32,000 bases of DNA from Candidatus Methylomirabilis limnetica (GCF_003044035.1 NZ_NVQC01000030.1:61957-93956); one strand, 5' to 3'; positions 2 through 14,070 are shown, numbered from the stretch's first letter. Numbers and translations: made by a program. The notes: generated by a model from the letters alone, not told the origin.

Positions 2-349
2 ATCGCCCGCATGGTCGCTGGGCGCGACATCGGACGATTGTTGTACTATCAGGTCGGCTGGCTCAAGAATCAAGGGACGAGGTGCACGCGCGAGGTCAGC
101 CTGGCCAAGTGGATGAACTGCGACAACGCCTTCCGGGCCGCAGATGATGCGGTTCAGATTCATGGGGCGTATGGCTACAGTGACGAGTTCCCGGTTGAAC
201 GCTACTTCCGCAACGCCCGTGGGTCGTTGATCTACGAGGGCACGCAGGAGATCCACCAGTTGATTCAGGCGGAGTATGCGCTGGGCTACCGTACCAACAA
301 GCCGCTTTCACGACCGCTGCCACCCTATCCGTTTGAGGGGGACGCGTAA
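2..349 (+). CDS. acyl-CoA dehydrogenase, C-terminal fragment (5' end outside window)
   Basis: ORF is open to the window edge. AVQIHGAYGYSDEFPVERYFRNARGSLIYEGTQEIH matches the conserved C-terminal helical-domain signature of the ACAD family. The stop overlaps the next start (TAATG at 347-351). Confidence 0.85.
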   Translation: MARMVAGRDIGRLLYYQVGWLKNQGTRCTREVSLAKWMNCDNAFRAADDAVQIHGAYGYSDEFPVERYFRNARGSLIYEGTQEIHQLIQAEYALGYRTNKPLSRPLPPYPFEGDA

Positions 350-1539
350 TGGCCGGCGCACTGGACGGTGTGCGGGTCCTGGACCTGTCGCGGCATCTGG
401 CAGGACCTTACTGCGCGATGATGTTGGGCGACCTGGGTGCTGATGTCATCAAGATCGAACGCCCAGGCGTTGGCGACGAGTCACGCCACTGGGGGCCGCC
501 GTTTTTTAGCGGGGAGTCGGCCTATTACCTGTGCTGCAACCGGAATAAGCAGAGCCTCACACTCAACTTCAAACACGAACGCGGCCTTGCCCTTGCCCGT
601 GAACTTGCGCGAGGCAGCGATGTGGTCATCGAGAACTTTCGTGTCGGCGTCCTGGACAAACTCGGTCTGGGTTACGCGGAGCTGAAAGCCATCAACCCGC
701 GCCTAGTGTACTGCTCTATCAGCGGGTTCGGGCATACCGGCCCCGACCGCGAGTTAGGGAGCTACGACTTTCTGATTCAGGGTCGCAGCGGCCTGATGTC
801 GATCACCGGCGAGCCCGACGGCCCGCCCATGAAGGTCGGGGTGGCGATCGCGGACGTGGCCGCCGGCCTGTTCGCGTGCAGCGCTGTCCTTTCGGCTCTT
901 TTTGCTCGGGAGCGAACCGGCGCTGGACAGCATCTTGACATCGCGCTCTACGATTCGCAGATCGCGGTACTGGCAAACGTGGCAAGCAACTATCTCTGCT
1001 CTGGCGAGATACCCGGGCGTTGGGGCAACGCGCACAAGAGCATCGTACCGTACGAAGCGTTTCAAGCAGCGGATGACTACCTGATCCTGGCCATCGGCAA
1101 CGATGAGCAGTGGCAGCGGTTCTGTGTCGCGGCGGGTGTCGCCGCATGGGCACAAGATGCGCGCTTTGCGACTAATCCGCAACGCGTCGCGAACCGCGAG
1201 GCGTTGATCCCCCTACTGAATAGCCTGCTCAGCGGTAAGACGGTTGCCGAGTGGCTGCGGCTCTGCGCCGAGGCTGATGTTCCAGCTGGACCGGTGAACA
1301 CGTTCGACAAGGTCTTCGCCGACCCGCAGGCGGATGCGCGAGGGATGCTCGTCCAGATGCCGCACCCCACGTTAGGGACCGTACGGCTGGCCGGCACGCC
1401 CCTCAACCTCTCCGCGACGCCGGCCGAGATGCGCCTGCCACCCCCGCTCCTGGGCGAGCACACCGACGCGATCCTCAGAGAGGTCCTTGACCTGGGTGAT
1501 GATGCGATCTCCGAGCTACACCGCGATGGGGTCGTGTGA
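349..1539 (+). CDS. family III CoA-transferase (CaiB/BaiF/Frc-like)
   Basis: 396-aa ORF. N-terminus RVLDLSRHLAGPYCAMMLGDLGADVIKIERPGVGDESRHWGPP is typical of family-III CoA-transferases. Translationally coupled to the upstream ACAD gene. Confidence 0.9.
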   Translation: MAGALDGVRVLDLSRHLAGPYCAMMLGDLGADVIKIERPGVGDESRHWGPPFFSGESAYYLCCNRNKQSLTLNFKHERGLALARELARGSDVVIENFRVGVLDKLGLGYAELKAINPRLVYCSISGFGHTGPDRELGSYDFLIQGRSGLMSITGEPDGPPMKVGVAIADVAAGLFACSAVLSALFARERTGAGQHLDIALYDSQIAVLANVASNYLCSGEIPGRWGNAHKSIVPYEAFQAADDYLILAIGNDEQWQRFCVAAGVAAWAQDARFATNPQRVANREALIPLLNSLLSGKTVAEWLRLCAEADVPAGPVNTFDKVFADPQADARGMLVQMPHPTLGTVRLAGTPLNLSATPAEMRLPPPLLGEHTDAILREVLDLGDDAISELHRDGVV

Positions 1540-1566
1540 AAATGAGCAGTAGAACCTTTCAAGGTG

Positions 1567-1584
1567 CCCCGCTGGCCAGCGGGG
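1567..1584. other. perfect 18-nt palindrome CCCCGCTGG/CCAGCGGGG downstream of the CoA-transferase
   Basis: Read directly, 28 nt after the stop. No U-tract follows, so it is not a canonical intrinsic terminator. Confidence 0.3.
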
Positions 1585-1802
1585 ATCTGGGTTGAAGGGG
1601 GCTACATGCCCGCGCCTGAGTTGTTGGTTATCATCCATAGCTAACGACAAGGATATCCAACAGTTGGTTCCTGTGCAGGCGTTGCTGTCAAAGGTATTCC
1701 AAGGGGTGTGTCATGGATATCGTGTCGCATGTCACGCACCAATATCGTAGAGTCCCTCCAGGAAATGTCGGCTAATATCTGTTAGCAGTATTGGAGATAT
1801 GA

Positions 1803-2021
1803 ATGGAAGTTGCTTATTCGGTAAATGGTGTGCCGATACGACTAACTTATGAAAGATGGTACCATATTGTCGAAAATCACGATGATTTGGCAAGCTGCTT
1901 CTATGAGGTACTTGATACTGTAGAGAAGCCGGATATTGTTGTTCGTGGAAACAAGGGGACTCTGAAGGCTGCGAGAAACATCGGAAGGAGAAAGTGGCTG
2001 GTAATAGTATGGCGACAGTAA
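1803..2021 (+). CDS. small hypothetical protein, putative toxin-like partner of the DUF2283 gene (possibly truncated)
   Basis: 72-aa ORF in a markedly AT-rich patch. The pattern (I)RLTYERWYHIVENHDDL...VLDTVEKPDIV...WLVIVWR resembles small proteins I remember encoded upstream of DUF2283 genes; those are usually ~100 aa. It overlaps the next ORF. Confidence 0.4.
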   Translation: MEVAYSVNGVPIRLTYERWYHIVENHDDLASCFYEVLDTVEKPDIVVRGNKGTLKAARNIGRRKWLVIVWRQ

Positions 2022-2260
2022 CAACCAAGAGAACGGTGGATTTCATCAGTAACTGTGTTGCAGTAGCGACCGACATGCTGAAATTACCAACGCAACATGT
2101 GTGGTTGGACTACGACAAGGAGGCAGATGTGCTCTATATGAGTTTCCGCAAACCTCAGCGAGCTACCACAACGATTGAAACGGACGATGATATATTGATA
2201 CGGAAAGATGGGAAGAATATCGTTGGTCTGACGATATTGAATGCGAGCACTAGACAATAA
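1994..2260 (+). CDS. DUF2283 domain protein (putative antitoxin-like)
   Basis: C-terminal 60 aa VWLDYDKEADVLYMSFRKPQRATTTIETDDDILIRKDGKNIVGLTILNAS fits the DUF2283 pattern (YD.E.D.LY..., G.IVG.EIL.AS). The start is uncertain: GTG 1994 after GGAAGGAG, ATG 2009 or ATG 2075. Confidence 0.65.
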   Translation: MAGNSMATVTTKRTVDFISNCVAVATDMLKLPTQHVWLDYDKEADVLYMSFRKPQRATTTIETDDDILIRKDGKNIVGLTILNASTRQ

Positions 2261-2327
2261 TAAGAATTCCGCTAACCAATCGTTCCAGCGGATGCGGATA
2301 AAGCCCCGCACCGCTGAACTCTGCGTT

Positions 2328-2545
2328 GAGGCTGTAGAAAAACCTCCTCGCGAAGAGCACTCGCCATAGGACGCGATATGAGCGACGATCGTCCGAAATC
2401 TGACGCTTTGCCCAACATCGGCGGGATCGTGGCCTCTCGCGGCTCAGAGAGAGCCGCAGGCTCGGCACCATTGGGCAGCAAGGAAAATCATGATCTGTTG
2501 CTGAGGCCTCGAAAGACGGGGTTTTCAGAGTTTTTCTACAGCCTC
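2328..2545. repeat. 218-bp segment bounded by a perfect 16-nt inverted repeat (GAGGCTGTAGAAAAAC / GTTTTTCTACAGCCTC)
   Basis: Arms at 2328-2343 and 2530-2545, read directly. The 186-nt interior has no convincing ORF. Confidence 0.4.
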
Positions 2546-2576
2546 GTTATGTGACCGGAGATTGTCTTGGGCTTGG

Positions 2577-2924
2577 CTATGGCAGATCCTGCGCAATTCT
2601 TAAACCGTCACCGACTTGGGCGAGAAGTTCGGGTGGAAGTATCCCGGCAAGCGAGGTCAACTTACTTCGATCAAGCGTCGTCACTTGGTGGCAGAGCGCG
2701 ACACTGTCTTTCTTCAGGCCGCCTGCTCCTGCCGGGAGCAGCACGGTGGTCGGTCCACGTCGCGCCTGGGAGCCGGATGTGGAAATGGGGACCACAATGA
2801 CGGATCGCCACCCTGGGGTCTGGTTAAACGCATCGTGCGACACAACAATGACCGGCCGGGTGCCTTGTTGTTCGGATCCGGATCGTGGGGAAAGGCTGGC
2901 CCAATACACCTCGCCTCGCTTCAC
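2577..2924 (-). CDS. mazF: MazF/PemK-family endoribonuclease toxin
   Basis: MKRGEVYWASLSPRSGSEQQGTRPVIVVSHDAFN...VIVVPISTS...LCHQVTTLDRSKL matches the PemK/MazF fold signature. There is a 4-nt overlap with the upstream antitoxin ORF. Confidence 0.85.
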   Translation of the reverse strand: MKRGEVYWASLSPRSGSEQQGTRPVIVVSHDAFNQTPGWRSVIVVPISTSGSQARRGPTTVLLPAGAGGLKKDSVALCHQVTTLDRSKLTSLAGILPPELLAQVGDGLRIAQDLP

Positions 2925-3208
2925 GGGTCGGACACTCGCTCGGAGTTCTCCCAGGCATCCACCACGTGCTCAACGCTTGCTGCTTCCAAGTCCGGATCGA
3001 GATCGTCGGAGGTCCCCGCGACTTTTCGTGCGTAGCACGCAATCTCGTCATGCACGGAGGCCCGATACTGCTCGGCAAGCCAGAGATCGATCGCCTCACG
3101 GACCAAGACTGTGGCCGGTCGGTTCTCGCGTTTGGCTTCTGCGCGGAGGCGCTGATACAGCGGTTGTGGCAAGGGTACGTGCAGGTTCTTCATATCCGTC
3201 TTTGGCAT
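2921..3208 (-). CDS. ribbon-helix-helix (CopG-like) antitoxin partnered with MazF
   Basis: 95-aa ORF. N-terminal NLHVPLPQPLYQRLRAEAKRENRPATVLVREAIDLWL is a typical RHH segment, and the tail is acidic. AGGAGG lies 7 nt upstream of the ATG. The stop overlaps the mazF start. Confidence 0.7.
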   Translation of the reverse strand: MPKTDMKNLHVPLPQPLYQRLRAEAKRENRPATVLVREAIDLWLAEQYRASVHDEIACYARKVAGTSDDLDPDLEAASVEHVVDAWENSERVSDP

Positions 3209-3231
3209 GGTCTATCCTCCTGACAGTAATT

Positions 3232-3250
3232 ATGGCAGAAAAGATGCCAT
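3232..3250. promoter_or_regulatory. candidate operator palindrome ATGGCA-N7-TGCCAT upstream of the RHH-mazF operon
   Basis: Inverted repeat ~25 nt upstream of the antitoxin start. TA operons are classically autoregulated at such palindromes. Confidence 0.25.
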
Positions 3251-3446
3251 GCGTAAAGTTCAGTTGTGGGAAATCATGTAGCCGTAGTAAATTTAGTGAG
3301 TTAGAATTTGGGCATAGTGGGGTCGGTCACATAACCAGCGATTCGACCGGGCGTACGGAACGCACCGGTTAATAGCGTCCCGTTAGGAGCACCAGGGTGG
3401 TGGCCGCGACTATCGGAAACGCGGTAGTCTTGAACGACTGGATCTC

Positions 3447-3596
3447 ATGAAGGCTCGAAGGATCAACTCGAACAAGCCGCACTTGTGGAAGGCCGACATT
3501 GCGGCCCCTGTTGACCAATTCAACTCGTGGTTGCGCCTATCCGAATCGACCCGAGGACAGCAATCTCAGATCGAACAGGGCGAGCTATTCACATGA
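3447..3596 (+). pseudogene. possible 5' relic of a XamI-like type II restriction endonuclease gene
   Basis: 49-codon ORF, too short for the track. MKARRINSNKPHLWKADIAAPVDQFNSWL resembles, from memory, the conserved N-terminus (..DKP.RWKADIAQSVD.YN.WF) of XamI-family REases. Similarity then stops and a stop codon follows. Confidence 0.25.
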
Positions 3597-3732
3597 GGCC
3601 ATGGTGGCCACGCTACAGGGCCGGATCCGTCTGACGGTGGCCTCGGTGGAAGGCCATCTGTCCGCGAATTTCGCCTTCCCGTAGGGCGAATAGTCCTATA
3701 TATTATCCCTCGGAAAAGGAGAATATGCCCCG

Positions 3733-5079
3733 ATGACCCGAGCGATCCCCCGGGAGCTGAAGGAAGCCCTGACCGAGAAGCTGGCGGAGTCGCTCGCCGG
3801 GCCGCTGCCAGAGGCGACACCGCGGCGGGTGTACGGTACGGTGGCCCTGCCCGGCAAGGTGAGCGCCGTGATCGGCATGCGGCGCGCGGGCAAGACCACG
3901 TTCCTCCACCAGTTGCGTCGCGAGCGCCTGGAACGGGGCACGCCCCGGGAACACCTGCCCTACGTGAACTTCGAGGACGAGCGGTTCGCGGGCCTCGAAG
4001 CGGGCCAGCTCGGTTTTCTGGTAGAGGAGCACGGCCGCCGGTTCCCCGAGGCACGCGCGCGGGCGACCGTCACCTGGTGCTTCGACGAGATCCAGGTCGT
4101 TCCTGGCTGGGAGCGGTTCGTCCGCCGGTTGCTGGATGCGGGCGGCTGCGAAGTGATCGTGACCGGATCCTCGGCGGCGCTCCTGTCGCGCGAGATCGCG
4201 ACGGCGCTGCGCGGGCGCGCATGGGAAGTGCCGCTCTACCCATTCAGCTTCGCCGAGGCACTGCGCCACCGCGGACAGGCCCTCCCCGCCGATTCCGCCT
4301 TTCTCACCGGGGAGGAGCGCGCTCGAATCGAGCGGGCCTTCGCAGACTGGCTCGTCACCGGCGGCTTCCCCGAGGCCCAGGGTCTCGACGGCGCCGCGCG
4401 GCGCCAGTTGCTGCGCGACTACGTGGATGTGGCCATGCTGCGCGATGTGGTGGAACGCCACGGGGTGAGCAACGTGACGGGGCTGCGCTGGCTGGTGCGC
4501 CACCTGCTCGGCAACGCGGCCGCGCACTTCAGCGTGGAGAAGTTCTACGCGGCGCTGAAGAGCCAGGGCATGGCCATCTCCAAGGACACAGTACACCAGT
4601 TGCTGGCTCATCTCGACGACTGTTTCCTGGTGCGGCTGGTCTGGATGGAGTCGGCCTCGGAGCGCCAGCGGATGGTCAATCCGCGCAAGGCCTACCCGGT
4701 GGACTCGGCGCTGATCGCGGTATTCGATCGCAGCGGACGCGCCAACAGCGGGCACGCCCTCGAGACGGCGGTAATGATCGAGCTCGAGCGGCGACGCTGC
4801 GCCGTGACCTATGTGCGCACGCCGGCCGGCTACGAAGTGGATTTCCTCGTACGCGGGGCGGAAGGCGAGATGGATCTGATCCAGGTGTGCGCCGACGCCA
4901 GCGATCCGGCGACGGCCGAGCGGGAGTTGCGGGCACTCGCCGAGGCCGGTCAGATCTACCCGGGTGCGCGGCTGCGGCTGCTGACGCTGACCCGCGACGG
5001 GGCACCTGCCGAGGTGCCTTCCGGCATCCTCGTGCAGCCCGCGTACGAATGGCTGCTCGAGATTGTGAAAATCGACTAA
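3733..5079 (+). CDS. AAA+ ATPase with C-terminal DUF4143 domain (COG1373-type)
   Basis: Walker A GMRRAGKTT and Walker B-like VTWCFDEIQVVPGWE. Length and layout are typical of AAA_14+DUF4143 proteins. AAGGAG lies 11 nt upstream of the ATG. Visibly higher GC than its neighbours. Confidence 0.8.
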   Translation: MTRAIPRELKEALTEKLAESLAGPLPEATPRRVYGTVALPGKVSAVIGMRRAGKTTFLHQLRRERLERGTPREHLPYVNFEDERFAGLEAGQLGFLVEEHGRRFPEARARATVTWCFDEIQVVPGWERFVRRLLDAGGCEVIVTGSSAALLSREIATALRGRAWEVPLYPFSFAEALRHRGQALPADSAFLTGEERARIERAFADWLVTGGFPEAQGLDGAARRQLLRDYVDVAMLRDVVERHGVSNVTGLRWLVRHLLGNAAAHFSVEKFYAALKSQGMAISKDTVHQLLAHLDDCFLVRLVWMESASERQRMVNPRKAYPVDSALIAVFDRSGRANSGHALETAVMIELERRRCAVTYVRTPAGYEVDFLVRGAEGEMDLIQVCADASDPATAERELRALAEAGQIYPGARLRLLTLTRDGAPAEVPSGILVQPAYEWLLEIVKID

Positions 5080-5092
5080 AGGGAATTTGCAG

Positions 5093-8000
5093 ATGATCGT
5101 TGTGCATTCCGGAGTCTATGATGGCCGAGTGCTTCTCTGGGGCGAAACGTCTGCACAATCGGATGCTGTTCTTCCCACTAGGCGGCGCGGCCGAAAGCCG
5201 GAGGTCTCCCACCCCCCATCTCTTCCCTATGATCCCGAGGCCAAGGGGCTATCGGCGGCTCTGATGGAAGCGGGATTCAGCTTCGCAGCCGACAAAAAAC
5301 GGATCGAGACCGTGATCGCCTGGATGCCCACCATGGACAAACAGCCGGTTGCATCCAGCCCCTTGATCGCTGAGCCGCCGAAGTCCCGCGCCAAACCCAT
5401 CCTGACACCCTGGACGGTGACGACGCTTCCCCTTTCTCCCGAACAAGCAGTCGAGGTTCTATGCGCCTGCGTGGGCAAGCAGACGTTGGCGCCGGGCGTA
5501 GTCGTCGGAAGCGATCTGGCGTTTTGGGCGACGGCCATGCGCTTCGCCGCAGCGCTCGTGGCCCGGCAGCAATTTCTTCCCGGAGTGACCGACGACACTG
5601 GAACCTATCGCGCCCGCTGGGGGCCGGTCTTTGCCGGACCAGATGCCGACCGACTGGCCACGCTCGCCAAGGCCATGCCTCACATCTGTCGGGCGTTGAC
5701 TCGTGAGAGCGTCTTGCCGCCGGAGACGCCGTCACGATCTGTGCTCTGCGACTTCATCGATGGGATTGTTGATTACCTCGTCCGCTCCCCGCTTCAAGCA
5801 TGCGGGGACAAGCCTGCGCTCCTGACGCAGCCCTCACCGATCAAGTCAGGACTTGGGCGCAAGAAGCAGACGTCCACCCCTTCGGCTAGGCTCAGAGCCT
5901 GCCCCGGACTCGATCCGGGGACAGGCTTCGACAGCGTTCACGACCAGTGGCTGTACGCCCTGCGGTCCCCTCATGGGATTATGGAGGGCGACGCGGCGGC
6001 GCTGGCGCAGTTTGCCGTTCAGGTTCGCGAATGGCAACACCCGATCGCCGTCTCTACGGCCACCCCATTCCGGCTCTGCTTCCGCCTGGAGGAGCCCGAA
6101 GGCAACGGAGATGATAGTGGTGCGTGGTATGTCCGTTATCTGCTGCAGGCTGCTGACGATCCCAGCCTGCTCATCCCGGCGAAAGACGCCTGGAACGCCA
6201 AGGGGCCTCAGGCGTCGATTCTAAGAAGCGGCGGGTTCAAAGCTCGGGAATATCTGCTGTCGTCCCTGGGCCAGGTTTCGGGGATCTCCTCACACATCGA
6301 GGCCAGCCTGAAGACAGCCGCCCCGGGCGGTTACGAACTGGATTCAACCGGCGCCCATGGATTCCTTATCAACTCAGCAGCGGTGCTGGAACAGGCGGGT
6401 GTTGGGGTCCTGCTGCCGGCATGGTGGACGCGTAAGGGAACAAAGCTGCGCCTGACCGCCCGCGCTCATGTGAAGAGCCCCAAGATGCAAGGAGGCGGTG
6501 GGCTGTCCCTTGATTCGATTGTCCAGTTCGACTGGCAAATAGCCCTCGGTGGCGAGCGGCTCTCCCTCGAAGAACTCAAGGTCCTGGCGCGCCTCAAGCA
6601 GCCCCTGGTCAAGGTGCGCGGCCAGTGGGTACAGATGAACGCCGAGGAGATCCGTACAGCGCTTGATTTCTGGAAGAAGGCCGCAGGTCACGCTACCGCA
6701 CGCGAGATTGTCCGGATGGCCTTGGGTGCGGGGAAGGCGCCGGACGGCATCGCTTTCGAGGGCGTCACCGCCACAGGCTGGATCGCCGACCTGCTGTCCT
6801 CATTGGACGGGCGCGCCGCGTTTGAGTCTCTGCCCGCGCCGGACGGATTCCAGGGAACGCTGCGTCCGTACCAGATGCGTGGCTATTCATGGCTGGCCTT
6901 CCTGCGGCGCTGGGGGCTGGGAGCGTGTCTGGCGGACGATATGGGACTCGGCAAAACCATTATGGCGCTGGCACTGATTCAACGGGACTGGGAAGCAGAC
7001 GACAAACGGCCGGTGCTGCTGGTCTGCCCGACGTCTGTTGTCGGCAACTGGCAGAAAGAAGCCGCCGGCTTCACGCCCGATCTGCCCGTCATGGTCCACC
7101 ACGGCATTGCCAGAACGAAAGGCGCTGAGTTGAAGACGAAGGCGCAAAAGCAGGCCCTGGTCATCTCCAGCTACGCACTCCTGCACCGGGATTTCGAGAC
7201 CCTGAAAGAGGTGCCTTGGTCCGGCGTGATCCTCGACGAGGCGCAAAACATCAAGAACCCGGAGACCAAACAGGCGAAGGCCGCGCGGGCGCTAAAGGCA
7301 GGCTATCGCATTGCGCTCACCGGCACCCCTGTAGAGAACAACATCGGCGATCTATGGTCCATCATCGAGTTCCTCAACCCAGGCTTCCTCGGCACGCAGA
7401 GCGAGTTCAAGCGGACGTTCTTCGTCCCCATCCAGGCCAACCGCGACCAGGAGGCGGTGAAGCATCTGAAAGGCCTGACCGGGCCGTTCATCCTGCGGCG
7501 GCTCAAGACTGATAAGTCCATCATCACCGATTTGCCAGAGAAGATGGAGATGAAGGTTTTCTGCACGCTGACCAGGGAGCAGGCGTCGCTCTACGCCGCC
7601 GTGGTCAAAGACGCCACCTCCAAGCTGAACTCTTCCAAGGGCATCCAGCGCAAGGGTGTGGTGTTGGCGACGCTGTCGAAGCTCAAGCAGGTCTGCAACC
7701 ACCCGGCGCAGTTGCTGGGTGACAACTCCGCGATCCCCGGACGCTCGGGTAAGTTAGCCCGTTTAACCGAAATGCTGGAGGAGATTATCCAGGTCGGGGA
7801 CCGTGCGCTGGTCTTCTCGCAGTTCGCCGAGATGGGCGACATCCTCCGACGGCACCTGCAAGAGGTGTTCGGACGCGAGGTGCTCTTCCTGCATGGAGGG
7901 GTCTCACAGCCGCAGCGAAACCGCATGGTCGAGCGCTTCCAGGCCGGCGGTGACGGCCCGCAGATCTTTCTCCTGTCCCTCAAGGCCGGCGGCGTCGGCT

Positions 8001-8287
8001 TGAACCTGACACGCGCCAACCACGTCTTCCACTTCGACCGCTGGTGGAACCCGGCGGTGGAGAACCAGGCAACCGACCGCGTCTTTCGCATCGGCCAGAC
8101 CAAAAACGTTCAGGTCCACAAGTTCCTCTGTGTGGGAACCCTGGAAGAGAAGATCGACGAGATGATCGAGCGCAAGCAGGAGATCGCTGAGGGGGTAGTT
8201 GGGACGGGAGAGGGCTGGCTGACCGAACTTTCAACTACTGCACTCAAGGACCTCTTCACGCTACGAAAAGAAGCGATAGGGGAATAG
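5093..8287 (+). CDS. SNF2-family helicase/translocase with long N-terminal region and SNF2-associated domain
   Basis: Motifs LRPYQ, DDMGLGKT (I), DEAQNIKN (II), LTGTPVENN (III), SLKAGGVGLNLT (V) and DRWWNPAVENQATDRVFRIGQ (VI). ATG 5093 lies 8 nt after AAGGGA. Confidence 0.9.
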   Translation: MIVVHSGVYDGRVLLWGETSAQSDAVLPTRRRGRKPEVSHPPSLPYDPEAKGLSAALMEAGFSFAADKKRIETVIAWMPTMDKQPVASSPLIAEPPKSRAKPILTPWTVTTLPLSPEQAVEVLCACVGKQTLAPGVVVGSDLAFWATAMRFAAALVARQQFLPGVTDDTGTYRARWGPVFAGPDADRLATLAKAMPHICRALTRESVLPPETPSRSVLCDFIDGIVDYLVRSPLQACGDKPALLTQPSPIKSGLGRKKQTSTPSARLRACPGLDPGTGFDSVHDQWLYALRSPHGIMEGDAAALAQFAVQVREWQHPIAVSTATPFRLCFRLEEPEGNGDDSGAWYVRYLLQAADDPSLLIPAKDAWNAKGPQASILRSGGFKAREYLLSSLGQVSGISSHIEASLKTAAPGGYELDSTGAHGFLINSAAVLEQAGVGVLLPAWWTRKGTKLRLTARAHVKSPKMQGGGGLSLDSIVQFDWQIALGGERLSLEELKVLARLKQPLVKVRGQWVQMNAEEIRTALDFWKKAAGHATAREIVRMALGAGKAPDGIAFEGVTATGWIADLLSSLDGRAAFESLPAPDGFQGTLRPYQMRGYSWLAFLRRWGLGACLADDMGLGKTIMALALIQRDWEADDKRPVLLVCPTSVVGNWQKEAAGFTPDLPVMVHHGIARTKGAELKTKAQKQALVISSYALLHRDFETLKEVPWSGVILDEAQNIKNPETKQAKAARALKAGYRIALTGTPVENNIGDLWSIIEFLNPGFLGTQSEFKRTFFVPIQANRDQEAVKHLKGLTGPFILRRLKTDKSIITDLPEKMEMKVFCTLTREQASLYAAVVKDATSKLNSSKGIQRKGVVLATLSKLKQVCNHPAQLLGDNSAIPGRSGKLARLTEMLEEIIQVGDRALVFSQFAEMGDILRRHLQEVFGREVLFLHGGVSQPQRNRMVERFQAGGDGPQIFLLSLKAGGVGLNLTRANHVFHFDRWWNPAVENQATDRVFRIGQTKNVQVHKFLCVGTLEEKIDEMIERKQEIAEGVVGTGEGWLTELSTTALKDLFTLRKEAIGE
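5786..5813 (+). repeat. palindromic unit TCCCCGC-N9-GCGGGGACAAGC inside the SNF2 CDS
   Basis: 7-bp stem. 26/28 identical to 16568-16595 in hemH, and 30/33 if extended to 5781/16563. Same strand and same codon phase (RSPLQACGDK). Confidence 0.7.
5902..5920 (+). repeat. second related hairpin CCCCGGA-N5-TCCGGGG followed by ACAGGC inside the SNF2 CDS
   Basis: Read directly. The CGGGGACAGGC tail mirrors that of the 5786 unit. Confidence 0.5.
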
Positions 8288-8289
8288 AT

Positions 8290-9186
8290 ATGGCTTGGCG
8301 ACGGTATCATGACTATGGATACTTCCCGCCTTCGCGCCCGCGGGAGGCCAAGGGCGGGATCAAGGCTCACTCCCAACGCGGTACGTTTGGGGAAAGCTGG
8401 TGGGCCAAGCGATGGATTGCTGTGCTGGAGGGCTTCCAGATCGGCGCTCGGTTGGGCCGGGGCCGCTCCTACGCCCGCCAGGGCCAGGTCCTCTCCATCG
8501 ATATCGACAAGGGGACGGTCAAGGCGAAGGTGCAGGGATCCCGGTCCACGCCTTACGACATCACGATCCAGGTCAAGGCGCTATCGGCCGCCAACTGGCA
8601 GAAGTTGATCGGGGCGCTGTCTCAGCAGGCCATCTTTGCGGCCAAGCTTATGGCCGGAGAGATGCCACAAGAGATCGAGCAGGCGTTCAAGGGCGTGGGG
8701 CTGTCGCTCTTCCCTGAACAGCTTCAAGACCTTGGTACGGACTGCTCCTGCCCGGACTGGTCGAATCCCTGCAAACATATCGCGGCGGTCTATTATCTGT
8801 TGGGTGAGGAGTTCCACCGCGACCCGTTTGTCATCTTCAAGCTGCGCGGGAAGAGCCGAGAGGAGCTGATCGGGCTCTTAGGCGCTACCGGTGGAAAAAC
8901 CACCAAAATAGACACCCGGAGAAAGTCCACCCCCACCGTGACGGGAGCAAAGGTCCCCCTGCCACCAGAGCCACTTGCTGCAGACATCTCCAGCTTTTGG
9001 AACGGTAGCAGCCTGCCTGAGGAGCTGTTTGGCGAGGTCCGGGTGCCGTCTGTGCCTGCGGCGTTGCTCAAGCGGCTGGGCGGCTTCCCTTTTTGGCGGG
9101 GTGAAGAACGATTCCAGGGGGCCGTCGAGCCGATCTACACCCAGGCGTCACCACGCGGCCTGGAGATCTTTCTCACGTGGAGATGA
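8290..9186 (+). CDS. SWIM zinc-finger protein
   Basis: CxCx6CxH motif CSCPDWSNPCKH, followed by IAAVYYLL. Starts 2 nt after the SNF2 stop, so it is operonic. Confidence 0.85.
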   Translation: MAWRRYHDYGYFPPSRPREAKGGIKAHSQRGTFGESWWAKRWIAVLEGFQIGARLGRGRSYARQGQVLSIDIDKGTVKAKVQGSRSTPYDITIQVKALSAANWQKLIGALSQQAIFAAKLMAGEMPQEIEQAFKGVGLSLFPEQLQDLGTDCSCPDWSNPCKHIAAVYYLLGEEFHRDPFVIFKLRGKSREELIGLLGATGGKTTKIDTRRKSTPTVTGAKVPLPPEPLAADISSFWNGSSLPEELFGEVRVPSVPAALLKRLGGFPFWRGEERFQGAVEPIYTQASPRGLEIFLTWR

Positions 9187-9196
9187 TCCGGCAATC

Positions 9197-9375
9197 GTAA
9201 CTACTCAGGTAGATAGACTGTAGGCTTTTAGACTGTAGGAACGTGCACAGACGAGCCAAGCATTTCCGAATGCGACGCGAAAATTATGGAGACCGAAAAG
9301 GTTCTGGGTGCCTTGATTAGGTCGATGCGCAACGACTAACAGCCTTCAGCCTACAGCCTAAACACCTGAGTAGTT
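9197..9375 (+). mobile_element. IVS-like inverted-repeat cassette, copy a (short subfamily), with 10-bp target-site duplication
   Basis: Ends are GTAACTACTCAGGTAGATAGACTGTAGG... and ...CAGCCTAAACACCTGAGTAGTT. The interior keeps only the C-terminal codons (METEKVLGALIRSMRND*) of a four-helix-bundle protein gene. TCCGGCAATC abuts both ends (9187-9196 and 9376-9385). Confidence 0.75.
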
Positions 9376-9432
9376 TCCGGCAATCTTGTTGAAGCCGGCG
9401 TTCAAGGCCCGGATGTTCGCGGAGGTGCAACC

Positions 9433-9735
9433 ATGAGCGTGAAAATTGATATTCCCAAAAAGAAGATTGCCGAGTTTTGCCGGCGCAACCGGATTCGCCG
9501 GCTGGCGTTTTTCGGGTCGGTGCTGCGCGACGATTTCGGGCCCGACAGCGACGTGGACGTCCTGGTCGAATTCGAATCCAGCGCGCGGGTGGGCCTGATT
9601 ACGCTGTCGGGAATGGAGATCGATTTGAGCCGGCTGCTGGAACGCAAGGTGGAAATACACACGGTCAAGGGCTTGAACCCGTACTTCCGGGATGAAGTAT
9701 TGCAGGCGGCGGAGGCGCAATATGAGCAAGCATGA
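9433..9735 (+). CDS. mntA: MNT-type nucleotidyltransferase antitoxin
   Basis: FFGSVLRDDFGPDSDVDVLVEF is the minimal NTase GS...DxD motif. GGAGG lies upstream. Overlaps the HEPN gene. Confidence 0.85.
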   Translation: MSVKIDIPKKKIAEFCRRNRIRRLAFFGSVLRDDFGPDSDVDVLVEFESSARVGLITLSGMEIDLSRLLERKVEIHTVKGLNPYFRDEVLQAAEAQYEQA

Positions 9736-10063
9736 CGATCAGGTGAGCCTCAAGGATATGCTCAGTCACGCTCGCGAAGCCGTCGACTTGCTGGGCGGCT
9801 CGATTCGGGAGGAATTGGCTGCCAATCGTGTGCTGCAACTGGCGCTGACGCAGTTGGTGGAGATCATCGGCGAGGCTGCCAATCGCATGTCTCAACCGAC
9901 ACAATCGCGTCACCCGGAGATACCGTGGCTCCAGATTATTGGCATGCGTAACCGGCTTGTTCATGGGTACGATGTCATCGACTTCGATTTGCTCTGGGAC
10001 ACCATCACCACTGATCTGCCCCCGCTCATCGACGCGTTGCAAGAGATCGTGGAGGATGCCTGA
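9722..10063 (+). CDS. hepT: HEPN (DUF86) toxin
   Basis: R-x4-H motif RNRLVHGYD. ATG 9722 lies 6 nt after GGAGG and overlaps the mntA stop. Confidence 0.85.
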   Translation: MSKHDDQVSLKDMLSHAREAVDLLGGSIREELAANRVLQLALTQLVEIIGEAANRMSQPTQSRHPEIPWLQIIGMRNRLVHGYDVIDFDLLWDTITTDLPPLIDALQEIVEDA

Positions 10064-10071
10064 GACATGGC

Positions 10072-10157
10072 CCGAGCGCACCGACGCGATCCTCGCTCGT
10101 CTGCTTGCGTTAGATGATAGCGCTATTGCAGAGCTGCTCCGCGATGGTGTGGTATAA
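10072..10157 (+). pseudogene. orphan 3' relic of a family-III CoA-transferase gene
   Basis: Reads ERTDAILARLLALDDSAIAELLRDGVV*, versus EHTDAILREVLDLGDDAISELHRDGVV* at 1456-1539. The 21-nt DNA core is 20/21 identical. No gene body lies upstream of it. Confidence 0.6.
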
Positions 10158-10317
10158 AAAGTACGGGGGAGGCAACTCCGATGTGCGTGTGGATGCCGTT
10201 GATCACGGCCGTGATCGCATGATCGGGAGAGGCTCACCAGCGACTGAAACAGGCTGGGGTCAAAGGTAACGTTAGACGCGCGAGCGATTGGCCACAGTCT
10301 CTCGGGTTCAAAGGGTG

Positions 10318-11166
10318 ATGACGATGACTCCTGAAGATGTCTACCGCAGTATCGATCGGCTTGTAGGTTTCATCCTGCGCTATGCCATCACGCTGGCAGC
10401 GATCAGCGCACTTTCAATGGCTTTGATCGAGACGTTCAAGGCGCTATTCAGTTGGCGAGATCGGTTTCACAAGCGGCGGGTCCGCGACTGGATCCAGAGC
10501 GTGGAGATCCCTCCAGAGGCCTTCATAGAGATCGGCCGCCCACCCCTCGTCAACCATTCCGATTTTCGTGAGCGTGTGTACTCCCAGTTGATCCGGCTTA
10601 CGACAGGAGAGACGGTCGACCCATCGGCCATGGGCAAGAGTATTGAGTGGACGCCCTGGGTTATTTCCCCTGATAACGCGCTGTTTGCCCTTGAGTTGGA
10701 GAAGATGATGGGGCAGATTCAGGACGCGGCCGACGCCGCGCTGGAGCATCCGAATATCAACCCTGAGCTTTACCTGTTCTTCAGCGCAGCAGCCCATCCC
10801 GATAATGACGACCACATTCGTTGGTTCATCTGGGCGCAACAGCCTCCGGCCTCGACGGCGGACGATCCAGCGCGCGCCAAGAGTCAGGCCGACACCTACG
10901 TGCGCCTGCGCCGGTTCATTCGGCGGCGGCTTGACGCGTTCCAACTTACGATGAGCTACCGGTGGCAGACGGGCAATCAGGTGGCTTCGGTGCTCCTTGG
11001 GGCAGTGGCGTTGTTCGGGTGCCTCGTGTACCTCGCTTGGACCAACCCTCCCCAAAACCCGCTTGATTGGGTTATGCTTGTCGTCGTATCGCTGGCAGGT
11101 GGAATCATGGCGCCGGCAGCTAAGGATTTGGTGATGGCCCTCAAGCGGGTGCGGAGCGGTGGCTAG
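10318..11166 (+). CDS. hypothetical membrane protein (1 N-terminal + 2 C-terminal TM segments), no recognised family
   Basis: Long ORF with coding-like composition. Hydrophobic stretches are ITLAAISALSMALI, VASVLLGAVALFGCLVYLAW and WVMLVVVSLAGGIMAPA. ATG 10318 follows AAGGG; the track starts at TTG 10288. Confidence 0.55.
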   Translation: MTMTPEDVYRSIDRLVGFILRYAITLAAISALSMALIETFKALFSWRDRFHKRRVRDWIQSVEIPPEAFIEIGRPPLVNHSDFRERVYSQLIRLTTGETVDPSAMGKSIEWTPWVISPDNALFALELEKMMGQIQDAADAALEHPNINPELYLFFSAAAHPDNDDHIRWFIWAQQPPASTADDPARAKSQADTYVRLRRFIRRRLDAFQLTMSYRWQTGNQVASVLLGAVALFGCLVYLAWTNPPQNPLDWVMLVVVSLAGGIMAPAAKDLVMALKRVRSGG

Positions 11167-11367
11167 GTATTTCGATCCACCCGAGGACTACAGACCCGGA
11201 CTCGCTTTCCAGCTTCGCGAGCGGAAAGAGGGTGGAGACCTGCAGCCTGAGGTTCGTCAGTCGCCGCCGCTCGCCACGCGCACGCCGGGCGCCGCTCCTC
11301 GGACAAGTACGGCCGAGACGCGCGAGTTGGGCCACGCCCGAGTAATTCGGTAAGCTCGAATCTGTGC

Positions 11368-12684
11368 TTATCTCTCCGTACCCCGGTACGACCAGTCCAA
11401 CAGCTCGACGGGGTGCAGAACCCGGATCTGAAGTCCACGCTCCCTGAGGCCCTTCTCGATCTGGAGGGAGCAGCCGGGGTTGCCGCTCAGCACTACGTCA
11501 GCCCCCGTCTCCCTGATCCGCTCGACCTTGCGATCGAGCAACTGCTGAGCCACGTCGGGATGAAGGAGATTGTAGATCCCGGCGCTGCCGCAGCAGAAGT
11601 CGGATTCTCTCAGCTCGACCAACCGGAGGCCCGGGATCGTATTCAGCAGTCGCCTCGGCTCCTGCCGAATCTTCTGGCCGTGCACCAGATGACCGGCGTC
11701 ATGATAGGTAACCGTCAGGTTCAGCGGCTGGAGCTTACCGCATAACGGGAGCCCAGCCAGAAGCTCTGAGACATCCCGCACCTTCCTACTGAAGGCCTCA
11801 GCCCGCTTGGCGTAGTCTGGGTCAGCTTGGAACAGCTCCCAATACTCCTTCATCACCGAGCCGCACCCCGCCGCGTTCACAGCGATAACATCGACGTTCG
11901 CCAGCTCGAAGCACTCGATTGTCCGCCGCGCCAGCAGCTTCCCTCGTTCCCGCTCCCCCTCGTGAACCAGGAGCGAACCGCAGCACTCTTGGTTCCTTGG
12001 CACCACCACCTCGTAGCCATTCTCGCTCAGAACCCGGACCGTGGCAGCATTCACGTGGGCGAAGAAGAACCGTTGGACGCAGCCGAGCAGGAGCCCAACC
12101 CGCCCACGCCTCTGACCTTTGGCTGGTGTGACCTCGGGGAGCTCGCCCAGGCAAGGGGCCGCGATCTCGGGAAGAAGGGCCTCCATCTGGCCAAGACGGC
12201 CAAAGAAGCTCAAGAGCCCTGAAGCCCTAATGAGCCGCTGCAGGCCCAACCTCTGATACAACCGAAGGAGGCTGGTAAGCGTCCGCAGGCGACCGAGATC
12301 GGTGAAAGTGTGCAGAATGAAATCGCGGAAACGCCGCTCGGCAGGGGGGTACTGATAGCGCCGCGCGATCTGGCCTCTGGCCGCCTCCATCAGGAAGCCA
12401 AACTTCACGCCCGAAGGGCAGGCCGTCTCGCAGGCCCGGCAGAGGAGGCAGAGGTCCATGTGCTTGACGAAGCTGTCAGAGGCGCCGATCTTCCCTTCTG
12501 AAGCGGTCCGAATGAGGTAGAGCCGTCCGCGCGGGCTATCCATCTCGTTGCCGAGAACAAGGTAGGTGGGACAGGTCGGCAGGCAGAACCCGCAGTGGAT
12601 GCAGTCGAGATAGAGTTCCGGATCAGGTGGGTCGAGTTGGTCAAAGGCGCCGGCGCCGATCGTTTCTGCTGACTGGCTCACCAT
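11368..12684 (-). CDS. (Fe-S)-binding oxidoreductase, GlcF / heterodisulfide-reductase-like
   Basis: Two ferredoxin motifs, CIHCGFCLPTCP and CLLCRACETACP, plus two CCG cysteine-rich domains (QECCGSLLVH, DFCCGSAGIYN). Confidence 0.85.
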   Translation of the reverse strand: MVSQSAETIGAGAFDQLDPPDPELYLDCIHCGFCLPTCPTYLVLGNEMDSPRGRLYLIRTASEGKIGASDSFVKHMDLCLLCRACETACPSGVKFGFLMEAARGQIARRYQYPPAERRFRDFILHTFTDLGRLRTLTSLLRLYQRLGLQRLIRASGLLSFFGRLGQMEALLPEIAAPCLGELPEVTPAKGQRRGRVGLLLGCVQRFFFAHVNAATVRVLSENGYEVVVPRNQECCGSLLVHEGERERGKLLARRTIECFELANVDVIAVNAAGCGSVMKEYWELFQADPDYAKRAEAFSRKVRDVSELLAGLPLCGKLQPLNLTVTYHDAGHLVHGQKIRQEPRRLLNTIPGLRLVELRESDFCCGSAGIYNLLHPDVAQQLLDRKVERIRETGADVVLSGNPGCSLQIEKGLRERGLQIRVLHPVELLDWSYRGTER

Positions 12685-12687
12685 CTG

Positions 12688-12916
12688 GTAACTACTCAGG
12701 TAGATAGACTGAAGGCTGAAGGCTGTTAGGGATAATCATGCGTGATCACACAAAACTTCAGGCATTTGAGCTGGCTGATGAAGTAGCAATGTTGGTTTAT
12801 TGGGTTGAACCAAAAGTCATAGAAACCGAGAAGGTCTTGAACGGCTTGATTCGCGTCTTGCGAGATAATTCAGAGCCTTCAGCCTTCAGCCTTCAGCCTA
12901 AACACCTTGTAGTTAC
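12688..12916 (+). mobile_element. IVS-like inverted-repeat cassette, copy b (long subfamily)
   Basis: Left arm GTAACTACTCAGGTAGATAGACTGAAGGCTGAAGGCTG, right arm CAGCCTTCAGCCTTCAGCCTAAACACCTTGTAGTTAC. The interior ORF 12738-12932 joins the N-terminus MRDHTKLQAFELADEVAMLVY to the C-terminus ETEKVLNGLIRVLRDN of a four-helix-bundle (23S IVS-type) protein, with the middle deleted. Confidence 0.75.
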
Positions 12917-12969
12917 ACCCTCTGTTCAATAGAGCGTCCCTCTTGCGGTATATTGACAGCGCCGTCCAA

Positions 12970-13722
12970 TCAGTTATCTGCCTCGTCGACGTATGCTTCG
13001 TGCAGCTTCACCGGCTCGGCGCGAACCTTTCTCAGCCGTAGGTTGAACAGTTCTACAACGATCGAGAACGCCATCGCAAAGTAGATGTAACCTTTGGGGA
13101 TATGCTGATGCAGGCCCTCGACGATGAGGGTAAAGCCGATGAGCAGGAGAAAACTCAACGCCAGCATTTTGATGGTAGGATGGCGATCCACAAAACCGCT
13201 GATCTGACGGGCGGAAACAATCATCACTCCTGCCGCGATAATCACGGCGGCGATCATGATCGCCAGTTGGTCAACCATGCCTACGGCGGTGATCACCGAA
13301 TCGAGCGAGAAGATGACATCCAGCAGGAGTATCTGCACAATGACGCTGGCGAACGAGGGGCCGACATGGGCTGAGGCGTGCCCCTCTACACCCTCCAGTT
13401 TTTGATGAATCTCATGGGTGCTCTTCCCCAGCAAAAACAGGCCGCCGAGAATGAGGATGATGTCGCGCCCGGCTATCTCATACTTGAACACCGAGAATAG
13501 CGGTTCGGTGAGGCTGATGACCCATGAGAGCGAGAGCAGAAGCAGAACGCGCGAGACGATTGCCAGTCCCAGGCCGATGGTGCGTGCCCGGTCTTGCTGA
13601 TGGGTAGGAAGTTTTCCGGCCAGAATCGAAATGAAGATAACGTTGTCAACGCCGAGAACGAGTTCAAGCACGACGAGCGTGATAAATGCGATCCATGTTT
13701 GGGGGTCAGCCAACCAATCCAT
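12970..13722 (-). CDS. TerC-family integral membrane protein
   Basis: MDWLADPQTWIAFITLVVLELVLGVDNVIFISILAGKLP is a typical TerC N-terminus. Multi-TM protein. GGAG lies 9 nt upstream of the ATG. Confidence 0.9.
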   Translation of the reverse strand: MDWLADPQTWIAFITLVVLELVLGVDNVIFISILAGKLPTHQQDRARTIGLGLAIVSRVLLLLSLSWVISLTEPLFSVFKYEIAGRDIILILGGLFLLGKSTHEIHQKLEGVEGHASAHVGPSFASVIVQILLLDVIFSLDSVITAVGMVDQLAIMIAAVIIAAGVMIVSARQISGFVDRHPTIKMLALSFLLLIGFTLIVEGLHQHIPKGYIYFAMAFSIVVELFNLRLRKVRAEPVKLHEAYVDEADN

Positions 13723-13735
13723 ATGTGAATTCTCC

Positions 13736-13910
13736 GTAACTACTCAGGTAGATAGACTGTAGTCTTTTAGACTGTAGGAACGCGCACAGATGAACCAGGC
13801 GTTTTCTGAATGCAACGCAAACATGATGGAGACCGAAAAGGTTCTGGGCGCCTTGATTCGGTCCATGCGCAGAGAGTAACAGCCTTCAGCCTAAACACCT
13901 GAGTAGTCAC
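13736..13910 (+). mobile_element. IVS-like inverted-repeat cassette, copy c (short subfamily)
   Basis: By eye about 85% identical to copy a. Ends are GTAACTACTCAGGTAGATAGACTGTAG... and ...CAGCCTAAACACCTGAGTAGTCAC. The relic reads METEKVLGALIRSMRRE*. Confidence 0.75.
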
Positions 13911-14008
13911 TATAATCCTACCCTCTGATCGGGTCAAGGACTCATCTGGCATCTCTTTTGCTCTGGCGCTTTTGAGCCGCCGACCGTATACTACAGGTTC
14001 ATTCTATG

Positions 14009-14033
14009 GTAACTAAAAGGCAGATAGACTGAA
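14009..14033 (+). repeat. solo degenerate left-arm-like sequence GTAACTAAAAGGCAGATAGACTGAA
   Basis: Resembles the GTAACTACTCAGGTAGATAGACTGAA arm of the cassettes. No partner arm is seen. Confidence 0.3.
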
Positions 14034-14070
14034 ACCCTTCGTCTCGGCGCCCCCGAAGAGGCTTTGAGCC

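Follow-up and report, generated by a model that had tools for sequence, protein, structure and literature searches.

A strain-variable CoA-transferase–GlcF interval in Candidatus Methylomirabilis limnetica that contains a partial second CoA-transferase 3′ end

A stretch of 32,000 nucleotides from Candidatus Methylomirabilis limnetica (GCF_003044035.1, NZ_NVQC01000030.1:61957-93956), referred to below as the window and numbered from its first letter, carries a functional family III CoA-transferase gene (CoAT) and, convergent with it, a GlcF-like gene. Between the two lies a patchwork of three toxin-antitoxin-type pairs, an AAA_14 ATPase gene, a gene pair for an SNF2-family helicase and a SWIM zinc-finger protein, a miniature inverted-repeat transposable element (MITE), and a cassette of a membrane-protein gene and a DUF900 gene (Table 1). 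Inside this interval the 3′ end of CoAT is present a second time, as a short fragment that is called the relic here. It is our conclusion, to which we assign a probability of roughly 60%, that the interval from the CoAT stop codon to the GlcF-like stop codon (1540-11367) is a strain-variable recombination hotspot with patchwork cargo, and that the relic derives from merged versions of the locus, no dedicated recombinase being involved. The window was annotated from a listing of open reading frames (ORFs) and from Pfam, NCBIfam and PADLOC scans. The loci of relatives (L numbers) are metagenome and genome-collection contigs from different samples, and exact-protein look-ups located independent assemblies as well as the 93-kb contig to which the window itself belongs (ENA ERZ4201065).

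The CoAT 3′ end and its second copy

In scans of genome and metagenome collections, the best matches of CoAT in Methylomirabilota were 84-96% identical at the amino acid level, and in Methylomirabilota contigs an acyl-CoA dehydrogenase (ACAD) gene always precedes CoAT on its 5′ side. The protein ends with GEHTDAILREVLDLGDDAISELHRDGVV, followed by the stop codon. The last 85 nt of the gene are repeated as the relic, which begins 9 nt past the HepT stop codon and translates, ungapped and in frame with the CoAT end, into (P)ERTDAILARLLALDDSAIAELLRDGVV and its own stop, with no gene body ahead of it, just as the initial annotation of the window had described. Over the final 87 nt the two copies are identical at 58 positions. 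Searched with blastn, the relic matches the CoAT tails of relatives with 82-89% identity and E values down to 1e-25, so it is no chance match. A chance repeat is likewise ruled out by a shuffle test on the 22-mer CGAGCACACCGACGCGATCCTC, which lies at 1455-1476 and recurs at 10073-10094 with one mismatch: with up to three mismatches allowed, the window contains no further match, and 0 are expected in shuffled sequence.

Two allele types of the CoAT tail were distinguished in Methylomirabilis, type A with [S/A]RLLALDD.. and type B with R[T/K]VLGLD... All of the closest relatives of the window's CoAT body (L080, L081, L082, L087, L083, L001 and L084) carry type A. The relic is of type A as well, with 33 of 36 nucleotides identical to L087 in the discriminating segment and one or two amino acids separating it from the tails of L080 and L087. 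The functional CoAT departs in tail allele from its closest relatives only at a 36-nt patch (1477-1512), which is identical at 28/36 positions to L004 and 25/36 to L002, against 14-19/36 to clade-A relatives and 16/36 to the relic. This B-type patch is confined to strains 97-100% identical to the window (L178, L179, P0241 and P0248). On either side of it the alignment with L087 and L080 resumes, taking in the last 27 nt of CoAT and the non-coding stretch at 1540-1807, and altogether window 1-1784/1807 is ~91% identical to both loci, save for a 25-nt insertion in the window downstream of CoAT. L087 and L080 have a native CoAT tail and no relic, yet possess the window's CoAT-downstream sequence (270 nt). 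Because the last 27 nt of the gene and 1540-1807 are common to these relic-free loci, 1477-10072 is not one inserted unit, as had been assumed initially. On these alignments, what is foreign in the functional tail is limited to a brief tract and does not form the left boundary of an 8.6-kb element. The initial annotation had also proposed a replacement 3′ end with the displaced original at the far end; the allele types fit that polarity, but only the 36-nt patch is foreign.

The 22-nt stretch had been put forward as a candidate att core. Among CoAT alleles of Methylomirabilota it is 17-22/22 identical in any pairwise comparison, A-versus-B pairs included, and it is uninformative on an att site because all alleles conserve the coding of (G)EHTDAIL. 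The identity of the repeat thus stems from coding conservation and is no sign of a specific att core, and any A/B tail pair has this pattern of identity followed by divergence. Decisively, the junction lies elsewhere in a sister strain. In L186, a JGI contig, the 3′ part of MNT and HepT codons 1-53 are present (95.7% identical to window 9574-9851), and HepT codon 53 is joined to CoAT codons 307-396 through a 10-nt imperfect microhomology, GCGCTGACGC/GCGCCGAGGC, with 8 of 10 positions matching. The relic of L186 therefore reaches 185 nt further upstream than that of the window; some 20 nt past its CoAT fragment the membrane gene follows, and then the start of DUF900. The relic of the window has a derived ending, GGTGTGGTATA(A/G), in common with the longer CoAT fragments that lie ahead of the membrane gene in L186 and L187, whereas functional CoAT tails end GGGGTCGTGTGA. 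The shared ending indicates that all three are the same second copy, of which the window has kept 85 nt, L186 270 nt and L187 at least 181 nt. Since these lengths differ, the 5′ edge of the relic in the window is a breakpoint that is secondary or specific to one event and not a conserved recombination site. No common core bounds the accessory DNA, the CoAT fragment starting at -85 in the window and at -270 in L186, and in the remnants of L180 and L183 described below CoAT similarity is recognisable only over about the last 40 nt. A Campbell-type insertion with crossover in the 22-nt stretch, 1477-10072 being the circle, was discarded in view of the L087/L080 alignment and of L186.

In agreement with the initial annotation, no integrase, transposase or recombinase was found by Pfam, either in any ORF or in a six-frame scan of the poorly coding region 1540-3760, the rest of the interval being occupied by annotated non-recombinase genes. 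No tRNA, Rfam family or other RNA gene that could have served as an integration target is present in the window.

The CoAT–GlcF interval in related strains

The homology between the window and its relatives ends at the CoAT stop codon and restarts at the GlcF stop codon in every relative. The ACAD-CoAT and GlcF flanks are conserved, the GlcF-like gene being 76-92% identical and syntenic in L001, L002, L003, L081, L083, L084 and L087, and the span between them, 46 bp at the shortest and more than 9 kb at the longest, has unrelated cargo or none. L001 (46 bp) and L081 (77 bp) are empty, which bears out the earlier view of an accessory region and its prediction that empty sites exist; the predicted arrangement was not seen in them, as CoAT is followed by GlcF and never, at full length, by the membrane gene. 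In L002 the interval comprises 8.5 kb with a type I restriction-modification system and a Schlafen/AlbA_2 protein, and in L082 at least 9 kb with a PLD-SNF2 helicase, an Eco57I-like methylase and an AIPR protein. The 4.9 kb of L003 encode an NTP-transferase, USP, a histidine kinase and response regulators; L011 has an NTP-transferase and FKBP. In L083 there are 1.2 kb with small ORFs and a 410-aa minus-strand ORF whose counterpart in L183 is a peptidase M48/PDZ gene, and in L084 PNPOx-like and DUF4258 genes, a 5′ fragment of SNF2 and FKBP. A ParE-like pair and SNF2-SWIM occupy the interval of L087, and an Unstab_antitox/ParE pair that of L080. Defence-type cargo is thus well represented at the locus: type I restriction-modification, the set of PLD-SNF2, Eco57I-like methylase and AIPR, the ParE, MazF and HepT toxins, the PADLOC candidates PDC-S01 and PDC-S09, and a MITE.

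The contents do not behave as a unit, and each of five relatives holds a different subset of them. L087 is ~91% identical to the window at the nucleotide level, alike in CoAT, SNF2-SWIM, GlcF and the haem genes; it possesses window 1540-1807 and 5049-9196 and is without 1808-5048 and 9197-11380, so that the DUF2283 pair, MazF/RHH, the AAA_14 gene, MNT/HepT, the relic and the membrane gene are all missing. L173 (~92%) has SWIM, the 5′ part of MNT and the membrane gene, and lacks 9588-10276 with HepT and the relic. In L165 (98%) everything from SWIM to TerC is present except a 179-nt repeat element. Of the AAA_14 gene, L180 retains no more than the promoter region and the initial ~55 nt, fused with post-SWIM sequence, and of SNF2, L084 retains codons 36-102 only. 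Modules have therefore been gained or lost independently among strains that are 91-98% identical, and they have separate histories, consistent with their differing GC contents. Deletion is a dominant process in the interval, judging from the losses within the DUF900 gene in the window, from AAA_14 to SWIM in L180, of SNF2 in L084, and of HepT with the relic in L173. Both critical junctions of the window recur in independent assemblies at 99.97-100% identity, the CoAT tail and its downstream sequence being identical in L161-L163 and the HepT-relic-membrane gene arrangement in L166-L171. As several independent assemblies agree, the junctions are no assembly artefacts.

Sequence has also been exchanged between lineages. 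The CoAT sequences P0130 and P0137 have near-identical bodies and different tails, and L180 combines a clade-A CoAT body with a B-type tail and L004-type downstream sequence. Tail allele and gene body being incongruent, the CoAT 3′ end evidently hosts crossovers, and throughout the group the tail allele tends to go with the downstream content and not with the gene body. The SNF2-SWIM genes of L183 share 92-93% identity with their counterparts in the window, L087 and L173, whereas its GlcF flank shows 81% identity with the window and 94.5% with L083. The block identity exceeds the flank identity, from which it follows that the SNF2-SWIM block has moved between lineages.

Further partial CoAT tails were found at the distal edge of such accessory DNA. 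About 45 nt downstream of SWIM, both L183 and L184, the latter from another sample, have a CoAT-tail remnant (...AITELRRDGVV, then stop), past which comes the sequence that lies directly 3′ of the CoAT stop codon in the island-free L083. L180 has the same SWIM-downstream sequence and remnant with an in-frame stop, continuing into the native CoAT-downstream sequence of L011 and L003. The remnants are situated at 7190-7230 in L180 and 1825-1909 in L183; their 5′ half has the length of a CoAT tail and no recognisable similarity to one. Beyond the relic and the remnants in L165, L180, L183/L184 and L186/L187, no CoAT fragment was found in the window or in the intervals of relatives, and no CoAT relic in L002, L003 or L011. 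Partial CoAT 3′ ends at the distal edge are thus a recurrent feature of the locus, with at least two or three different boundaries.

Cargo of the interval and neighbouring genes

The features of the locus are collected in Table 1. As the initial annotation had noted, composition swings along the interval, with a GC content of 44.5-46% at 1601-2200 and 70-72% at 3801-4400, compared with ~62% in the flanks. A restriction-enzyme-like relic reported in the same annotation could not be confirmed, as no family match was obtained even at E<=10 for the most suggestive peptide.

Table 1. Positions of genes and other features at the CoAT–GlcF locus of the window.
Feature	Position	Strand	Remarks
Acyl-CoA dehydrogenase gene, 3′ end	11-349		adjoins CoAT
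CoAT, family III CoA-transferase, functional	349-1539	+	PF02515 over full length, E 1.6e-140; left core flank
Conserved 22-nt stretch encoding (G)EHTDAIL	1455-1476	+	21/22 identical to 10073-10094; "core" of the initial annotation
B-type tail patch, 36 nt	1477-1512	+	inside clade-A gene; from allele alignment
Non-coding stretch 3′ of CoAT	1540-1807		common to L087 and L080
72-aa ORF	1803-2021	+	no family match; partner of DUF2283
DUF2283 protein	1994-2260	+	PF10049, E 2.8e-11; toxin-antitoxin-like pair with 72-aa ORF; GC ~45%
MazF/PemK toxin	2577-2924	−	PF02452, E 1.4e-29
Ribbon-helix-helix (RHH) antitoxin	2921-3208	−	PF01402, weak, E 0.0017
AAA_14/DUF4143 ATPase	3733-5079	+	PF13173, PF13635; PADLOC candidate PDC-S01, E 6.7e-93; GC 66-72%
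SNF2-family helicase	5087-8287	+	DUF3670 N-terminal region; PF00176, PF12419, PF00271
SWIM zinc-finger protein	8290-9186	+	PF04434; conserved SNF2 partner
MITE-like insertion ("repeat cassette"), 179 nt	9197-9375		terminal inverted repeats, 10-bp target duplication
MNT nucleotidyltransferase	9433-9735	+	PF01909
HepT RNase toxin	9692-10063	+	PF01934; pairs with MNT
Relic, 3′ end of second CoAT copy	10073-10157	+	own stop codon; A-type tail allele
Membrane-protein gene	10288-11166	+	first of accessory two-gene cassette; gene-caller start 10324
DUF900 gene remnant	11167-11367		internal deletion of ~730 nt
GlcF-like Fe-S/CCG-domain gene	11368-12684	−	PF02754 and Fer4 families; convergent with CoAT; right core flank

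The module of the 72-aa ORF and DUF2283 is absent from L087 and L080, where ParE-type modules are found instead, and the MazF/RHH pair was found at none of the relatives' loci. MNT/HepT, which gave weak MntA/HepT matches in NCBIfam, is absent from L087 and truncated in L173 and L186. The three pairs resemble type II and type VII toxin-antitoxin systems (MazF/RHH and MNT/HepT) and a DUF2283 pair in their domains and in their two-gene layout with overlapping or adjacent ORFs; in the window these putative toxin-antitoxin modules are cargo of the hotspot and not the cause of the repeat. As a separate observation, three independent short-read assemblies (L161-L163) all stop exactly at window 2353, a point that falls barely within a region enclosed by the arms of a perfect 16-nt inverted repeat, GAGGCTGTAGAAAAAC at 2328-2343 and GTTTTTCTACAGCCTC at 2530-2545. 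Another repeat, or strain heterogeneity at this point, is the probable explanation.

The SNF2 protein resembles the SCO1167/SCO6262 helicase family with a score below the cut-off, and its gene is 91-93% identical at the nucleotide level in L087, L173 and L183. The SWIM protein has more than 7,700 homologues at E<=1e-40, the best matches being 65-78% identical and distributed over several phyla. The SNF2-SWIM pair is very widespread and highly conserved, and plasmids, too, carry SWIM paired with helicases. PADLOC assigned the pair to no system, its matches being limited to the generic helicase core (DpdE, ZorD and DrmD models). Away from the CoAT locus, in another lineage (L181 4951-10533, SWIM 78% identical), SNF2-SWIM adjoins a serine recombinase (Resolvase), an HTH_17 protein and several PIN/antitoxin pairs, a context that looks mobile.

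The element at 9197-9375 is flanked by the target duplication TCCGGCAATC at 9187-9196 and 9376-9385, and its inverted-repeat arms of 28 nt are 86% complementary. It belongs to a MITE-like family of ~170-220 nt with terminal inverted repeats GTAACTACTCAGGTAGATAGACTG... / ...AACACCTGAGTAGTT and four copies in the window (9197-9375, 12687-12907, 13735-13900 and ~31759). The site is empty, with a 10-nt overlap, in the 98%-identical L165 and in L173, an indication that the 9197 copy transposed recently. The element thus combines terminal inverted repeats with a duplicated target, further copies and a close relative whose site is empty, as is characteristic of MITEs. The copy at 12687 holds a 64-aa ORF without a family match. 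A resemblance of the small ORF of the repeat element to four-helix-bundle or 23S rRNA intervening-sequence proteins found no support in Pfam or NCBIfam.

The membrane protein has no Pfam, NCBIfam or PADLOC match. In L185 and in unrelated phyla its homologues are followed by a DUF900 (alpha/beta-hydrolase-like) gene, often beside AAA_14 or DUF2283 genes, so that the two genes may form an accessory cassette that has yet to be characterised. In the alignment, window 10297-11273 corresponds to L185 118-1094 and window 11268-11412 to L185 1824-1968; L185 1095-1823, part of the 309-aa DUF900 gene there, has no counterpart in the window. In L185 a CoAT tail comes first, then a spacer with 82% identity to window 10121-10229, and after it the membrane gene, the DUF900 gene and GlcF. 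The membrane gene as a native neighbour of CoAT in general was ruled out, as it is absent from all genome-collection relatives and the cassette occurs elsewhere. Wherever the DNA upstream of the cassette is visible in Methylomirabilis, a CoAT tail with the same derived ending precedes it (window, L165, L185, L186 and L187), L173 being the exception, with a deletion ahead of the membrane gene and no CoAT tail.

Beyond the GlcF-like gene, window 12685-14070 is a second variable spot. It contains a TerC membrane-protein gene in the window, L083 and L165 (in the window between two same-orientation MITE-like repeats), a HigB/HigA-like pair in L087, read from ORF translations only, other ORFs in L081 and almost nothing in L001. 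The single ORF at 14071-16044 that follows, a fusion of HemD (uroporphyrinogen-III synthase) and HemE (uroporphyrinogen decarboxylase), is kept in relatives.

Origin of the second CoAT copy

Homologous recombination of the host in the core genes on either side swaps the content of the hotspot among strains. According to the interpretation that we favour, two versions of the locus, one with CoAT, the island and MNT/HepT and the other with CoAT, the membrane gene, the DUF900 gene and GlcF, would have been merged by an illegitimate, microhomology-type join that left a partial second CoAT. Incoming DNA of another strain would have found homology in a flanking core gene at one of its ends only, the other end being attached by an illegitimate join. 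Such homology-facilitated illegitimate recombination is the simplest explanation, and the relic would be the remainder of the 3′ part of the second, allelic CoAT copy. Deletions have since shortened the join to different extents in the window and in L186 and removed it in L173, and the 36-nt patch may stem from a separate short recombination tract. The two traces to be expected of such a join, an orphan 3′ fragment and microhomology, are seen in the relic at 10073-10157 and at the 8/10 junction of L186. Homology arms for transfer and loss could be provided by CoAT on the left and by GlcF or a CoAT-tail remnant on the right. CoAT and a distal remnant form direct repeats and are possible arms for RecA-dependent transfer and precise loss, so the pairs L183/L083 and L180/L011 might be explained without an integrase.

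Several points weigh against this interpretation. No contig was found in which a full-length CoAT is directly followed by the membrane gene, and as the contigs L185 and L187 start within the CoAT tail, the second of the parental versions is deduced rather than seen. The contigs are metagenomic and from different samples, so that the order of gains and losses is not fixable, and one insertion with two deletions fits the window and L186 equally well as two independent insertions. The relic starts only 22 nt upstream of the position of the patch, a coincidence with a chance of ~7% if the two are unrelated, and this proximity may hint at a linked event outside the model. Methylomirabilis, a genus known only from enrichment cultures, is not known to be naturally competent or to take up DNA by another route.

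The initial annotation explained the locus by a single ~8.6-kb element (1477-10072) that integrated site-specifically at a 21-22-nt att core, supplied a replacement 3′ end and lost its integrase. A core direct repeat with divergent tails behind it, a relic of native allele type paired with a functional tail that is foreign in its informative segment, empty sites in relatives and an intact CoAT reading frame all agree with such an event. There is a precedent in Escherichia coli icd, where, in the account given in PMC13626634 (with Hill et al. 1989 cited there), the insert, e14 or phage 21, supplies a functional 3′ end and a divergent icdC fragment lies at the far end, flanking e14 together with icd. 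The window is similar to that case in its intact functional tail, here with a foreign 36-nt patch, and in its distal native-type homologous fragment; it differs in that e14 has its own integrase and a fixed site, whereas here neither a recombinase nor fixed boundaries nor a single unit is found. No integrase or integrase relic is present, and the core, conserved in all alleles, holds no att information. The relic of L186 has 270 nt and another junction, and the CoAT similarity of L180 and L183 is confined to about the last 40 nt. Moreover, the sequence past the supposedly supplied tail is common to L087 and L080, which have native tails and no relic, the parts of the element are present or absent independently, and SNF2-SWIM diverges between the window and L087 in step with the flanks (~91% everywhere). 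Site-specific integration of this kind is in our judgement quite unlikely. The observation behind it was confirmed at every checkable point except the restriction-enzyme-like relic, and the integration reading itself is partly supported. A mobile unit that never had need of an integrase is very improbable: the AAA_14-SNF2-SWIM block would home to the CoAT 3′ end through its own proteins or use a built-in tail copy as a portable homology arm, by which host RecA could insert it into any strain irrespective of the downstream sequence. Hints in this direction are that the block differs by ~8% between lineages whose flanks differ by ~19%, and that in L180 and L183 the SWIM-downstream sequence and remnant abut two native CoAT-downstream sequences at ~40 nt or less from the stop codon.

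Decay of a duplicate is an unlikely origin of the relic, which would then be the last piece of a second full-length CoAT, once located in tandem or close by, arisen by intragenomic duplication or whole-copy import and eroded by deletions. The 270 nt of the second copy kept in L186 imply that the relic was once longer, and deletions are common in the interval. Against this, two full-length tandem CoAT genes, named by the initial annotation as the mark of a decayed paralogue, were found at none (0) of the ~20 Methylomirabilota loci examined, and the copies represent different alleles, with identities of 16/36 over the patch segment and of 160/188 between the L186 fragment and the functional gene of the window, which makes a recent intragenomic duplication of CoAT unlikely. 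A possible, though tentative, variant turns the polarity around: CoAT, the island, MNT/HepT and GlcF would be resident, and the relic would be no displaced original but a passenger on imported DNA consisting of a CoAT 3′ end, the membrane gene, DUF900 and GlcF, anchored by GlcF homology and joined illegitimately behind HepT. The same-ending CoAT tail ahead of the membrane cassette wherever upstream DNA is visible (L173 excepted) would agree with this, as would the larger divergence of the membrane gene (85.5% identity between the window and L186) relative to the flanking genes (~91% between the window and L087). Structure alone cannot separate the two polarities, and the GlcF identities single out no donor lineage.

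A merger of locus versions in a hotspot, as favoured here, has parallels in known systems. With core-gene-flanked hotspots and defence islands the locus has in common that the interval bracketed by CoAT and GlcF is empty in some strains, that its cargo is rich in restriction-modification, abortive-infection-type, toxin-antitoxin and candidate defence genes, and that cargo is exchanged between lineages. Unlike in those, partial 3′ copies of the flanking CoAT remain within the interval, and the 3′ end of this gene comes in two allelic forms whose distribution follows the content downstream. Displaced or orphan 3′ ends are known from Rhs, contact-dependent inhibition and type VI secretion system effector-immunity arrays, where they are attributed to homology-facilitated illegitimate recombination (PMC5361080). 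There too the constant 5′ part of a gene serves as anchor, a new 3′ end comes in with downstream genes, and the old 3′ end is orphaned downstream (PMC5361080). The present case differs in that the gene is a metabolic CoA-transferase, the tail peptides are near-equivalent and without a coupled immunity gene, and the window has one orphan instead of an array.

The feature is of an ordinary kind, belonging to the known class of strain-variable hotspots and carrying a gene-end scar. The duplication of a gene 3′ end around an island is by itself no evidence of site-specific integration, because the apparent core is here the most conserved coding stretch and the junction differs in a sister strain. 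Of modest practical value are the consequences for the annotation of Methylomirabilis genomes, namely the relic pseudogene, the MITE family, the truncated DUF900 gene and the toxin-antitoxin and defence-type cargo, and the CoAT–GlcF interval can serve as a marker of strain diversity. For the uncultivated NC10 bacteria, which are nitrite-dependent methane oxidisers, the locus offers a worked example of the turnover of accessory and defence-type genes at one spot without a dedicated recombinase.

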